Assembly: GCA_964016885.1 (NCBI GenBank)
Contig: OZ024746.1
Span: 46,748,001-46,812,000 of the forward strand
Origin: Eledone cirrhosa
Taxonomy: Eukaryota
Direction: 5' to 3'
Length of the DNA stretch: 64,000 nucleotides
The notes under the pieces were generated by a model, which was given only the letters and a program-made list of their open reading frames with translations, was not told the DNA's origin and ran no database searches. This document shows positions 5,637 through 62,570 of the stretch, piece after piece. The position numbers were made by a program, and so were the translations under genes. Position 1 is the stretch's first letter. The number at the start of each line of letters is the position of its first letter.

Positions 5637-7129
5637 ATGTGTGTGTGTGTGTAAGTTGTTTTCTCAGTTTCTGTGTGTATACAAACACATATACATAGGG
5701 CGCTATATATATATATATATATATATATGAAAGTTGTTTTCTCTGTTTGTGTGTGTATACTTCATTGATTTGAAGAGGTCAGAGCCCTATTGTTTATTAT
5801 TATATTGAAATATTGTGTAAGGTTAACGTTATTCTGTCATGTGCTCTCAGTCATAAATTTTCTGTATCGCACAAATCGTAAGCGATTAACTTGCCTTTTA
5901 TTTTTTTATGTACTATAAAATAGAAAAGTTGAATCAATCAACTATGCTTTCTCATCGTTTGAAAACAGCTCTTTTGTATATGTGAAGTATCAATAGTCGA
6001 GGGAAATCATTCCATTTAATAATTTAATAGAAAATACCGATAATTTATCTGCTGCTGTGTTTAGAGGAATATATGTTTTGAATAAACACACCATAAACAA
6101 AAATCATCTGTTTTTTCCTCCAAAACATATTACCTTAGAAGTGGATTCAAATTGCAAGTTTTGATGACAAATTCATATCTTAAGAATTTCCCATATAAGG
6201 CCTAAGAAGCTACTCGATATAATCTCAGATAATGTCAATAGTCCATGGTAAAAAATATGCCTATTAAACTATAATTATAAAAATACAATATGGGCGATTG
6301 GTAGCAATTTCCATGCTTGAAGTCATGTCAATCTGCCCAGTTTATATCTTCTTATACGTTGAAATCGTCAAACTATAAATATTCTGTGAGAGAAAAATAT
6401 GTTTCCATGTCGAATTACGGATTGTCTTAATTTACTGTGATACTGATATATTCGTTTTAATTGAATTATAGTCATTTCTTTGCCTCTTTCGACAAAAATA
6501 TTTATTACTATTTCAGGAATGTTTGTTTGTTGGTTTCTTCAAAATACAACCGAATGTGACAAGGTTTTGCCAAACACAAAAAGTTTCTGGATACAGTTGG
6601 ATACTTAATATTACTCTCTCACACTAGCCTCTGAGCTCACAATGTGTACGTTTCTATGTAGTCGCTTGGTCCTCTAGAAATAGCAGCCAGATCTATCACT
6701 AATTACACTTTATTGTTTTAAAGTATGGTTAGCATATCAGATTATGTAGCTGTAGATAATCTTCGTCTAAAAATAAAGAGGGATGGTCACAGAAGTATTG
6801 TTCTCAGTAATAAATCTGCTTGATTAGGGCTATCCCGTCACTAACTAAATACAACAATAACTGTGTTCTGAGTTTGTTCTGTTCCTCCTCTCTTTACGTA
6901 AATCATCAAATAATTATTCAATCTCTAAATATTTACTCATTCTCTCTCTATATCTGAGCAATGAAACATATCTCTGTAATCCTTCTAAACGCTTTCTAAA
7001 AGCCAACGTTTTCGACGTTGTTGGTTATCTACGTATCGTCTTCATGTCGGTCATTTCATAAATGATGGATATCATGAATAAACAATCATTGAAATATGAA
7101 AGACAACTCAAAATTACGGATTATTAGGG

Positions 7130-20520: not shown

Positions 20521-20583
<63 letters not shown>

Positions 20584-20690
20584 TATATATATATAAATAT
20601 ATATATATAAATATATATATATAAATATATATAAATATATATATATAAATATATATAATATATATCAAATATATAAGAACCGTAGAGCAA

Positions 20691-20837
20691 ATATTTATTA
20701 AAATGACAGATTAAAGTTTAAGCAAAGAATCGCTGCTTTCACCCTTAACGGGATCTTCTGAAACTGAGTTTCAGAAGATCCCGTTAAGGGTGAAAGTAGC
20801 GATTCTTTGCTTAAACTTTAATCTGTCATTTTAATAA

Positions 20838-20841
<4 letters not shown>
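20691..20841. repeat. Near-perfect palindrome with ~74-bp arms next to (TA)n
   Basis: atatttattaaaatgacag...gatcttctgaaact / agtttcagaagatc...ctgtcattttaataaatat, 1 mismatch. Confidence 0.95.
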
Positions 20842-20871
<30 letters not shown>

Positions 20872-48900: not shown

Positions 48901-49367
48901 AAAGGCTCTACAGACACGGGCGCCCGGGTAGGGACCCCGCCAAAAAGATCTGTCCCAGATGCGTGTGCGACGAGGAAACCGTTGCACACGCATTGGTACA
49001 CTGCTCGGGCGCAGCCGATCTGTGGGGCTATGTCGAAAAACTGCTGTCAAGGGTGGGACCGATCCGGTTGACCACCGAGTCTATTGTAATGATCAAGCCG
49101 CCTCCCCCCTTCAAAGATGAAGCAGAGGCGGTGTTTCTGTGCGTAATAGCCATGGCGAAAGAGGTTGTATGGTGGACGCGTCTGAAAGGACTGAGGTCAG
49201 GCACCTTTCTCTCTGGCCAACAACTGGTCCGTTTCTTCCGATATCATTTCGGAAGAAGGATCAGGATGGAGAGAGAGGTGCTGCACCCCAGCCGTTTCTA
49301 TGAAAGATGGGTGACAGTGGCGAGAATGGCCCGTGTGAATGGGCCTTCACTCTACATCAGACTATAG
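45930..49367 (+). CDS. ORF2: APE endonuclease, reverse transcriptase and C-terminal zinc finger (~1145 aa)
   Basis: LNARGL, ICEAR, VGDWN, YLDRFLV, SDHKLV; PGLDGLPYE, FRPITLLN, LDQSKAFDRVDH, RQGCPLS, YADDV; CPRC...ETVAHALVHC. The frame is uninterrupted. Confidence 0.96.
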   Translation: MAMLRVGCLNARGLGSTWKQAMLLNDLRSQRIDVMVICEARISNVRQLAPTFDDFEMHASLCQPGGGGGVVVLLQKHLGLATQMVHMDPEGRLVVLDLGSGKGGAFRLVAAYGPFGSMRPDFFHRLETFLGTSRSLLLVGDWNGILDARWDYVGACPDREGCNSLKGLIGRFDLADRYRLDFPTAPTWTWANRSGSSRSYLDRFLVRIKDKDFLSCPKMRMVGYSDHKLVTCMVNLDRTHRQGPGYWKLNLSLPASRAYRNRISTLVKERLTGAIVNSRWWVSLKREIRVVSIEFSKVLAADRNRKERELIDRVEEAIRSGDVARVLASRTALSQFFDAKHEGCVVRSKIRALGNEGTKAVSWARVTEANSGTKSTIRSLRDLDGRAILEPKQMCEAFQRHFARLFGRGGEPVGNVDFGPYLAGLPRHSDREAKSCEEPISAAEIEDVLSQCGKRKSPGLDGLPYELYLAMLDLFPDLLEAVYCNWQQNGRIPCTVTKGVVTLVRKDENKGDEISNFRPITLLNTELQILAKVLAKRLALVVGNLVGDAQTCAIPSRSIHDNLHLMRYIIERVGNEPGFGGALINLDQSKAFDRVDHGYLDAVLAAAGFGPVFRGWITAMHSSRICSRVKVNGYLSEPFKIARSIRQGCPLSSLLYVLTLEPLLRKLELLQGIPLEPGLRKAVSAYADDVTVMVSTASEIEAVGTLLEEYEKFTGAKLNRDKSIGLQLGTWRGRPMPSDGVVGRWTEGPVKLLGVWFGPDLQVEKNWAEVTNRVFALTQKWASCKLSLKGRAEVANTYIASVIYYRLTVVPCPRETLTKMERALFQFLWKRRAPMVRRSICCQHPSKRGLGMPWLMMRKHALRLRHLYVFLTGQPVWASFVRRTFPRLVSLTELQSWVKQRPRKLGAWHTECAQALTALWQADPVISGDSTATFYRGLVRSRCDDALGEALDMEEDELASLFGRTFSPGPMDNFQKSLAWQCYRGALPVRERLYRHGRPGRDPAKKICPRCVCDEETVAHALVHCSGAADLWGYVEKLLSRVGPIRLTTESIVMIKPPPPFKDEAEAVFLCVIAMAKEVVWWTRLKGLRSGTFLSGQQLVRFFRYHFGRRIRMEREVLHPSRFYERWVTVARMARVNGPSLYIRL

Positions 49368-52260: not shown

Positions 52261-57981
<5,721 letters not shown>

Positions 57982-58165
57982 TCTGTGGCGGAACTCACTA
58001 GATGCTGGATATGTGCCAGAAAACCTTCTATCCCAGTCTGTTGTCCCAGTTTTCAAAAAGGGAAACAAATCCCTTGCCGTGAATTACCGTCCAATCTCAC
58101 TCACCTCTCATATCATTAAGGTATTTGAGCGAGTGGTGAGATCGCGAATGACCCACTTCCTTGAG
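57982..58165 (+). mobile_element. CR1-group RT fragment running into the assembly gap
   Basis: [52 protein letters not shown]. Confidence 0.85.
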
Positions 58166-58365
58166 NNNNNNNNNNNNNNNNNNNNNNNNNNNNNNNNNNN
58201 NNNNNNNNNNNNNNNNNNNNNNNNNNNNNNNNNNNNNNNNNNNNNNNNNNNNNNNNNNNNNNNNNNNNNNNNNNNNNNNNNNNNNNNNNNNNNNNNNNNN
58301 NNNNNNNNNNNNNNNNNNNNNNNNNNNNNNNNNNNNNNNNNNNNNNNNNNNNNNNNNNNNNNNNN
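58166..58365. other. Scaffold gap (200 N)
   Basis: Run of N. Contiguity across it is unverified. Confidence 1.
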
Positions 58366-58453
<88 letters not shown>

Positions 58454-58581
58454 CGCAAGGGCAAATTCATTGAGTGAGCTAGACGTTGGCCGGAGGACGT
58501 TTACTTAATAACACCGATCTTCGTTACCTTTATAATTATAATGTATGTATGTATGTATGTATGTATGTATGTATGTATATG

Positions 58582-58907
58582 TTCTTTTGCTTCAGTCATT
58601 AGACTGCGGCCGTGCTAGGACATGGCACGAAGTCAATGGTTTCCAAACCAATACTAATTTTTCAAGTCTGGTACTCCTTCTAACGGATCATTCTAAAAAA
58701 ATTAACACAGATTCAAACGTAAAAACAAACCTGACAGACACATATTCATACACACACGCACTCAAAGACACACACACACACACACAATATCTGCTTCTGC
58801 AGTTACTGACTACCAAGTTGGAATCATAAGGTGTTGGTCAACATGAGTAGAAGACTCTTGCTCAAGGTACCATAAAGTGAGACTGAACGCAAGACCACGT
58901 GGTTGCG
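58582..58907 (-). mobile_element. SINE family C with internal (CA)n; related fragments at 24500-24635 and 60455-60495
   Basis: ttcagtcattagactgcggccgtgctagg and tagaagactcttgctcaaggtacc...gactgaacgcaagaccacgtggttg, a reverse B-box-like head. Confidence 0.6.
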
Positions 58908-58941
58908 AAAAATCTCTGTCTACGACTATATCATAAACATA

Positions 58942-58976
<35 letters not shown>

Positions 58977-59040
58977 CCTCACCATCCTCTCAGGAATAAG
59001 TGGGCAAAATCCTTGGTGCAATACTTGCTAATATTATATA

Positions 59041-59696
59041 TATATTATAATAGAATATAAAAGAAACACGAACACAGATATATAGATATATGTGTTCAAA
59101 TCGCAAAGGACCAGATTCGCTAAGGTGAAAAGAATACTAACTATAGACAATTGGGTTCGCTTGTCTCAATTTAAGAAAAAATTAAGAAAATAAATACAAA
59201 CCGGAATTGTGGTAACTACCAATCACCCAGACAACTTGTTGTTGTTTCGCAAAGTTAATTGTGAATAGAAATACTAATCCAAGCTCATCAGTGGGTGATG
59301 AATTAGTTTCCTAGACACATCTATGTATGCTATATATAAAATATAAAACAGCGCACATGGCATCCTAGCGAGTCTCACAAACCCACACCACTAAAAATAG
59401 CAGCCAGGTTTACTTGACATTTGAAATAGCTCAACAAATTAACGGAGCCGAATATATTAAATGTATATATTGAGTTAGGAACTCAAAATAGTCTCTTACA
59501 ATAAAATAGCTCTAAGAAAGAGATATTTCTGAGCCGTATATTATAATAGAATATAAAAGAAAAACGAACACAGATATATAGATATATGTGTTCAAATCGT
59601 AAGGGACCAGATTCGCTAAGGTGAAAAGAATACTAACTATAGACAATTGGGTTCGCTTGTCTCAATTTAAGAAAAAATCAAGAAAATAAATACAAA
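59041..59696 (-). mobile_element. ORF-less 496-nt HHR unit with 160-nt terminal redundancy
   Basis: 59041-59200 recurs at 59537-59696 with about 4 substitutions. One HHR lies between the repeats. TA-flanked. Confidence 0.88.
59222..59299 (-). ncRNA. Canonical type I hammerhead ribozyme
   Basis: Minus strand: atcaccca-CTGATGA-gc...gc-GAAAC-aac-aacaa-gtt-GTC-tgggtgat. 8-bp stem I and 5-bp stem III. Confidence 0.9.
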
Positions 59697-61100
59697 TATA
59701 TATATATATATATATGTATATTTAATACATTAACAGAGAAAGCTTTAAGCAATACTCCGACCGGCTTCCGTCTCACTCAACAAACATTAGGATATACCTG
59801 AGTATAATCCAAATTATACTTTTGGGGTGCTAACTATACGTATTTTGCGGATAGCCAGTTGTATTATTTTATGAGACATAATTAAATACACAGGGTTAGG
59901 CGACGACGACGACCAAGAAGAAGAAGAAGAAGAAGAAGGAGGAGGAGAAGAAGAAGAAGAAGAATGATTATGAAGATGATTATGGTGATGATGAAGAACA
60001 AAGAGGAGGTAGTAAAAGAGGAGGAGGAGGAGCAAATATAAAGCAAGAAAAATTTAAGTCTCCACAAATAAAAGAGAAGGATGCTTTGCTATGTTTCTAC
60101 TGCCATTACATAGTACCCGGTTGGTTCTTTAGACGTGTGTAGATGTGTTTCTTTGCCTGTTTATAGTTGTACTTGTCTGTGTGAGTGAATACATGTGAGG
60201 TTTATCTGTACACATGTACAATCATGCACATGTGTGTGTGTCTCTTTGTGGTGCAAAGTTTGACAACGTTGACGTGTTAACATGCCTTTCAGCATGCATA
60301 TGTTCCTAACACATATGCAAATGTTAAGCACGTGCATATATATATATACACACAGCAACGCATACATATGAGCGTATACACAGATATTAATCAATCTACA
60401 TCCACACGCTCACATGTTAGTATGTTCAGTTGAGGAATTTAACCTTTATATTTTACTGGTTTCAGTAATTGGACTGGGCCCATGCTGGAACACCTCTTTT
60501 TGCTGGAGTCTTATACATATACTTTCTTTTAAGAGAAGTATGTGTGTGTGTGTGTGTGTGTGTTTATAAGCATGTGTGTATTAATATAGCAATGTTTGTC
60601 GGGTAGATGTGTGTATGTACGTAATACGTGTATATAACTATGTGTATTTGTGTGTGTGTGTTTGCGGGGAATGGCATTTGTACAAATTTATAGGTGTGTA
60701 TGTGTGTATGTACATATGTATGCTCATGAGTTGGTGATCACATGCGAGTCTGTAACTACAAATTGTAGTTTTTTGTGTAGCCACGAGTCAACCAGCAAAT
60801 CTAGGACGAGACCAACTGTATTTTGGGGGAATTTATGCAATAATTTATCTAATGTGCCCTTCCTTGTTAAAAAATAAGATTGGTCTGATTTGAGCAAGAT
60901 TTCAGTCAGAGTGAGCTATTACGTGGAGGCTACCTTACTGGCTTGTGTGTCAACAGGTTGTGTATGTCTGTATATATATGTGTTCGTGATGTGTGTGTGT
61001 GTGTGTGTGCGTGCGCGCGTCTGTGTGTGTGTGTGTGCCAATCGAGTAATTATAAATGATTGAACACCTTTCCAATCATTCCTACCTACACATAGTCACA

Positions 61101-62272: not shown

Positions 62273-62407
62273 ATATTTCAACCAATTTTCTAAGCTATTA
62301 TTTATAGTGATATCCTGCGTTTGGGATTCTCACATTTTCAAATTTTACATTCACCCAGCGCTACAATAATTTATTATATATATATATGCGTGTGTGTGTA
62401 TGTGTAT

Positions 62408-62443
<36 letters not shown>

Positions 62444-62570
62444 ATACACATACACACACGCATATATATATATAATAAGTTATTGTAGCGCTGGGTGAAT
62501 GTAAAATTTGAAAATGTGAGAATCCCAAACGCAGGATATCACTATAAATAATAGCTTAGAAAATTGGTTG

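Follow-up and report, generated by a model that had tools for sequence, protein, structure and literature searches.

The window analyzed here is a stretch of 64,000 nucleotides from Eledone cirrhosa (GenBank assembly GCA_964016885.1, contig OZ024746.1, positions 46,748,001 to 46,812,000 of the forward strand). On its minus strand, between positions 59041 and 59696, lies an insertion of a short noncoding monomer. Positions within this unit, denoted q, are numbered along the minus strand from q1 at 59696. The features of the locus are as follows.

59041..59696, minus strand: single-armed insertion comprising 1.32 units of the 496-nt noncoding monomer, 5'-truncated at 59696 and with its 3' end at start site 1.
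59537..59696, minus strand: 5' turn of the terminal redundancy, q1-160, with 4 differences from the 3' turn.
59041..59200, minus strand: 3' turn of the terminal redundancy, terminating in ...ATAATATA at site 1.
59452..59536, minus strand: 85-nt "tail" from site 1 (after 59537) to site 2 (after 59452), which occurs at one end of twin insertions.
59508..59535, minus strand: predicted GGCUC...GAGCU stem immediately 3' of site 1, with a putative role in recognition by the reverse transcriptase (RT).
59428..59449, minus strand: predicted GGCUC...GAGCU stem immediately 3' of site 2; it has GGCTCC and GTTGAGC in common with the stem at site 2 of a Hydra-clade Penelope-like element (PLE).
59222..59299, minus strand: type I hammerhead motif with a long and weak stem II, a predicted cut between 59230 and 59229, and no Rfam match.
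59697..59715, no strand: (TA)n next to the 5' truncation, the probable target.
59035..59040, no strand: short TA run at the 3' end, probable target and priming microhomology.

The two turns form a 160-nt direct repeat (59041-59200 and 59537-59696) with a spacing of 496 nt and 98% identity (4 differences), as the initial annotation had reported along with the TA sequences at both ends, now located at 59697-59715 and 59035-59040. Also in agreement with that annotation, the window's ORF list held no frame of at least 80 aa overlapping the unit, and the longest ATG ORF around the circularized monomer was 29 aa. The GC content over 58001-60000 was 32%. Since the window copy consists of only one arm and terminates at site 1, we regard the 160-nt repeat as an overshoot past one unit and not as an LTR. 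The copy is an aged insertion with one hammerhead and not a source of circles; with a single hammerhead it cannot itself release the hammerhead-to-hammerhead 496-nt monomer that had been proposed for it.

Other repeats are found in the same window. A non-LTR retrotransposon at 44592-49367 (plus strand), with close copies at loci L125 and L136, has a first frame of 437 codons and an open frame of 1,153 codons (endonuclease, RT, zf-RVT). Beyond a 5.7-kb (TA)n-type array (52264-57982) come a short RT-like fragment (about 57984-58166) and a gap in the assembly, and a near-perfect 150-nt fold-back with a TA core lies at 62350-62499.

The hammerhead motif occupies q398-475 (minus strand, 59299-59222). 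It has an 8-bp stem I, the core sequences CUGAUGA and GAAA, and a GUC at q465-467, with the cut predicted after 59230. Stem III comprises 5 bp and a nonpalindromic AACAA loop, as originally described. The base of stem II is made of a G-C and a C-G pair; in the subfamily of the window copy, these two standard pairs are followed by two U.U appositions, and approximately 32 nt are enclosed. No Rfam hammerhead match was obtained on the window, nor at E<=1 on a 751-base stretch; both searches returned only AT-repeat miRNA noise. The motif had been called intact and canonical, a description that holds for the type I core and the GUC but not for the weak stem II or the Rfam search.

In 25 aligned copies, the core and stems I and III were conserved, the two stems being paired in 99% and 98% of cells, respectively. 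Stem III showed one compensated pair across subfamilies, in which the core letters were conserved as well. Stem II had 2 firm pairs, or 4 in an older GCAA/UUGC subfamily, for which a circle of about 510 nt would be expected. The predicted minimum-energy fold pairs the CUGAU core away and lies 4.3 kcal/mol below the hammerhead fold, both locally and in the circle. At 59292-59274 (minus strand), ACUGAU could form pairs within stem II with AUUAGU, which reads AUUGGU elsewhere in the family; this predicted fold would occlude the hammerhead core and might leave a circle uncut. The circularized monomer as a whole is predicted to adopt a stable self-paired fold (z of -4.2 relative to 60 shuffles). 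A different family contributes further hammerhead-like cores to the window, at 862 (minus), 33700 (minus), and 51920 (plus); their stem II is short, and the same motif recurs in loci L100, L133, and L134.

We evaluated the distribution of the unit in the host genome (3.0 Gb) with five unit-derived queries. First-look candidates numbered between 1,134 and 3,280 per query, figures that should not be read as copy numbers, and the best 40 were scored each time. For one of the queries, all 40 scored matches, the window copy aside, spanned most of the unit at 89 to 96% identity. The unit is thus multicopy and retrozyme-like, as had been suggested, and a local duplication was ruled out by these 40 matches. 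Loci of the family differ from each other by approximately 7.5 to 7.6%.

A pool of 112 loci, after removal of duplicates, matches below 83% identity, and two arms cut by a locus edge, yielded 71 insertions with 119 arms. Forty-nine arms ended at site 1 (q144-162), 53 at site 2 (q238-247), and 17 elsewhere, so that two fixed 3' end sites 85 nt apart account for 102 of the 119 arms. A query with the unique middle of the unit gave 3' ends at q157-161 in 14 and at q245 in 12 of 30 loci, three of these 30 being duplicates of one insertion. A (TA)3 sequence was found within 6 nt beyond the end in 81 of the 102 site-ending arms. The 5' ends were scattered over 105 distinct positions. The insertions consisted of 43 inverted twins, 25 single arms, and 3 others; in 32 twins each of the two ends fell at one of the sites, and 29 of these twins combined site 1 with site 2 (binomial p of 1.3e-6). 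The length of the terminal repeat varied among copies from none to more than a full unit, and by this measure there are no true LTRs. The flanks consist of (TA)n, in which a target-site duplication, longer than 4 bp in animal non-LTR retrozymes that have one, would be indistinguishable.

The ends, for which the initial annotation had proposed a test of circular permutation, are therefore fixed on the 3' side. Fixed ends do not refute a circular template, since reverse transcription by PLEs begins at set positions inside the RNA (PMC11167929). The truncation, the inverted arm, and the tail at one end only ("one-sided tail") are the insertion pattern of PLEs. For endonuclease-bearing (EN+) PLEs, Craig et al. 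2021 (PMC8557442) describe copies that are cut short at the 5' end, with one arm inverted and a tail on one side. Frangieh et al. 2024 (PMC11167929) likewise report that, in vitro, an anole PLE uses two internal start sites with a tail between them, extends both target strands, and takes uncut RNA as its main substrate. The unit resembles this element, Poseidon of Anolis carolinensis, in its 5' truncation, inverted 5' arm, and AT-rich target (PMC11167929 and PMC8557442) and in having a tail on one side only, bounded by two internal start sites that lie downstream of the hammerhead (PMC11167929). It differs from the same published account in the length of its tail (85 nt compared with 30 to 40 in Poseidon) and in that its ends coincide with TA-like target-pairing tracts, whereas the anole element starts at a nonhomologous site. 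Unlike EN+ PLEs, the unit contains no ORF for an RT or a GIY-YIG endonuclease, or indeed any ORF. The element behaves as a nonautonomous PLE.

Since truncation and inversion look identical in PLE stubs, the copies could be read as stubs, each made of the pLTR and tail of some autonomous PLE, with the 496-nt period being an internal pLTR tandem; rare full-length copies could also be missed when the best 40 candidates are scored. We consider this very improbable. Arms of up to 1,084 nt, the longest observed, go around the same 496-nt unit and contain no ORF, and PLE coding sequence adjoins just 2 insertions in 144 family loci, at different unit positions and from different clades. One is L030 (about 1270-1390), where the arm is joined directly to the end of a Neptune-like ORF. 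In L206 (about 1795-1850), the arm is joined to the coding sequence of a second Hydra family, the ends of which lack the stem described below. Both junctions may represent a template switch or a later rearrangement; they indicate two different clades and were not counted as support. Consistent with the initial annotation's reading of the unit as something other than the pLTR of a longer coding element, no coding element with the unit as its pLTR was seen among the best matches in the 144 family loci or in 102 PLE-bearing loci. Nor did the unit show pLTR homology with any PLE (Neptune-like, Hydra, or one further family) in those 102 loci.

We then considered which RNA had served as the template. 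The predicted cut site was crossed by 81 of the 119 arms, twice in 13 of them, and only 3 of the 119 5' ends fell at q460-472, matching a uniform spread. A cut linear monomer was ruled out as the template by the arms spanning the cut site and by the lack of clustering of 5' ends there. Repeated priming at either site on new RNA was disfavored, with both start sites passed internally unbroken 41 times in the 119 arms and no tail-skipping junctions; repeated priming at site 2 alone may remain. Of the two origins offered for the 1.3-unit structure, copying of more than a unit from a continuous template is supported, and tandem priming at either site is disfavored.

The two turns of one arm differed by 5.1%, compared with 7.6% between loci. 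Subfamily alleles were common to both turns in 132 of 164 cases, with 27 expected, and private alleles in 21 of 240, with approximately 3 expected; the latter occurred in 11 insertions. Because the turns share both subfamily and private alleles, each insertion copied one sequence more than once around. The polarity of the differences was not recurrent (69 same and 74 reversed pairs of 946), and no difference between turns was fixed. A heterogeneous linear dimer was rejected as the source by this lack of a polarity signal between the 5' and 3' turns. A continuous template is indicated. The likeness of the turns could come from a circle, but equally from a tandem transcript of homogeneous units or from gene conversion after insertion.

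Between a circle and an uncut tandem transcript, we lean slightly toward the circle. In the linear alternative, a homogeneous tandem locus yields an uncut transcript that a PLE copies and inserts; the hammerhead is a passenger or protein-dependent, and no circle takes part. This alternative would fit the loci of 2.2 units, the greatest arm length observed (L187/L193), and the 4-mers of a sister family, the absence of a 5' end excess at the cut site, the weak stem II with its predicted competing fold, and the preference of the anole PLE for uncut RNA in vitro (PMC11167929). It is harder to reconcile with the sequence conservation, since the core letters are kept across subfamilies and stem III has its compensated pair, or with the private alleles present in both turns of 11 insertions and the absence of fixed differences between turns. 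Moreover, a query containing two hammerheads brought up no array longer than 2.2 units among the best 40 of its 3,280 candidates, and linear sources would shorten with each round. Overall, we consider the linear alternative unlikely, if well short of negligible. Two whole hammerheads were present in 6 of the 119 arms, and these six, judged by sequence, could free the monomer that the window copy cannot.

At each start site, GGCUC...GAGCU begins no more than a few bases after an AUAUA-like tract, and the monomer contains only two GCTC sequences, one at each site. The GCUC...GAGC stem was predicted in a joint fold; a double change was found in 1 of 10 pairs among 8 sequences, a thin covariation. 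PLEs are abundant in this genome, with 10,595 first-look GIY-YIG candidates, two of which were confirmed to have both RT and GIY-YIG domains. An abundant Hydra-type family, with 83,612 first-look candidates, has open frames of up to approximately 713 codons, with natural open frames at L252 and L269. It is represented here by loci L248-L277, and its clade was assigned by motifs rather than by a tree. The Hydra clade is defined in section 11 of PMC8557442 by RWK, DKT, CxCX5C, CxxC, and CxH motifs and a (TA)n target. The L248-L277 translation contains RWR (a variant of RWK), DKT, CNCRNRVDC (the CxCX5C linker), CDLC (CxxC), and CKH (CxH).

The ends of this family lay at two sites 89 nt apart in (TA)n (13 and 12 of 30 loci), and all six scorable twins combined site 1 with site 2. 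GCUC...GAGC follows both ends, and the site-2 stem has the GGCTCC and GTTGAGC of site 2 in the unit. The unit and this family are therefore alike in their (TA)n target, in ends 85 to 89 nt apart that occur as 1+2 pairs, and in the stem after each end. They differ in that the unit encodes nothing, and the sampled Hydra PLE and the unit have no alignable pLTR or hammerhead sequence in common. With a pairwise identity of 98.4%, a value biased toward best matches, the Hydra copies sampled are younger than the unit family (approximately 7.5% apart), so that the mobilization would have to be credited to an older relative. In the window, short Hydra-clade PLE ends were observed at 20563-20857, as an inverted twin, and at 44016-44101.

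These likenesses suggest that the mobilizing partner was probably of the Hydra clade. A Neptune-like or other non-Hydra PLE, with the common stem being due to chance or a relic, appears improbable. Neptune-like families too have two TA-like ends in (TA)n, the L030 arm is joined to a Neptune-like ORF end, and only about nine PLE families were sampled from the 10,595 and 83,612 first-look candidates. However, GCUC...GAGC was missing from all four other PLE tails checked (three Neptune-like and one other), and Neptune-like tails, where seen, measured approximately 40 to 45 nt or less, compared with 85 nt for the unit and 89 nt for the Hydra family. Separately, the window contains a diverged inverted pair of ends (40169-41004) related to the Neptune-like family of L121. 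The pLTR of that family (about 6400-6450) carries, by eye, a hammerhead-like motif with U and A in place of the C3-G8 pair.

Two younger sister noncoding families, seen at L169/L195 and L230, have units of 549 nt (up to 4 in tandem) and approximately 530 nt; they retain the site-1 stem and end at matching sites. They occur in tandem arrays of 3 to 4 units and carry a different hammerhead, with a very long stem II and a CUGAGGA core. These younger families are better material for a test of circles than the 496-nt family.

The class to which the element belongs, the animal non-LTR retrozymes, is already known (Cervera and de la Pena 2020, PMC7229834; Li, Clavereau and Pollet 2026, 10.64898/2026.07.22.740005). 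As described in the main points of these papers, the resemblance lies in a short, noncoding, AT-rich unit with one type I hammerhead, in head-to-tail copies of more than a unit, in occurring alongside PLEs, and in a predicted self-paired circle. By sequence, the unit would be placed in this class on the published definitions just outlined, save for the second hammerhead at the window locus. Two consecutive units with complete hammerheads, which Li et al. 2026 take to mark an "active" element, were absent from that locus and present in the 6 of 119 arms noted above. Copies mostly shorter than 2 units, with so few arms carrying two whole hammerheads, set the family apart from the animal retrozymes in those accounts, as does the lack of a pLTR homologue in the 102 PLE-bearing loci. 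Fixed ends and inverted arms are features of the unit that are absent from the structural descriptions of retrozymes in PMC7229834 and 10.64898/2026.07.22.740005. The long and weak stem II and 5-bp stem III also depart from the usual 4-bp helix II and 1- to 2-bp helix III outlined in PMC4209133. In vitro, eight of nine Xenopus retrozyme dimers did not cleave, according to the cleavage results given in 10.64898/2026.07.22.740005. Our literature search, which left out supplements such as the Hydra hammerhead file of PMC8557442 that may bear on the matter, found no account of this family or of a hairpin common to retrozymes and Hydra PLEs.

We conclude with high confidence that the element is a PLE-mobilized non-LTR retrozyme. 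The fuller reading that we favor, with moderate confidence, is of a noncoding hammerhead repeat that a PLE RT-endonuclease, with the Hydra clade as its likeliest source, pasted into (TA)n from a continuous and probably circular RNA template. A two-hammerhead locus would be transcribed, cut twice, and ligated into a 496-nt circle. The PLE protein would bind both stems and nick both strands of a (TA)n target, and each 3'-OH would then anneal to the AUAUA tract that adjoins a stem on its 5' side, with site 1 serving one strand and site 2 the other. The RT would extend for a variable distance, often more than one turn, leaving a terminal repeat, and the two cDNAs would be joined into an inverted twin, or a single arm would result as in the window copy. 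These steps are inferred, with transcription, cleavage, and circles being predictions. The short GCUC...GAGC match, the weak stem II, and the more stable inactive fold that is predicted count against this reading.

Mobilization of animal retrozymes by PLEs via circular RNA is treated as a proposal, as yet unshown, where PMC7229834 and 10.64898/2026.07.22.740005 discuss it. A more specific and tentative idea, which we think rather doubtful, is that the retrozyme circle hijacks the Hydra-clade enzyme by mimicking the two GCUC/GAGC stems of its tail, so that a dimer primes on both strands and copies around the circle. If true, an animal retrozyme would for the first time have its enzyme and its cis-signal named, an RT related to telomerase would be copying a circular RNA into the genome, and any RNA circle would become a substrate through a tag of two hairpins. 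The family supplies the parts for a direct test, namely two exact start sites and natural two-hammerhead copies, together with a candidate short signal common to the unit and to one particular PLE clade, which is present in this genome with open reading frames.
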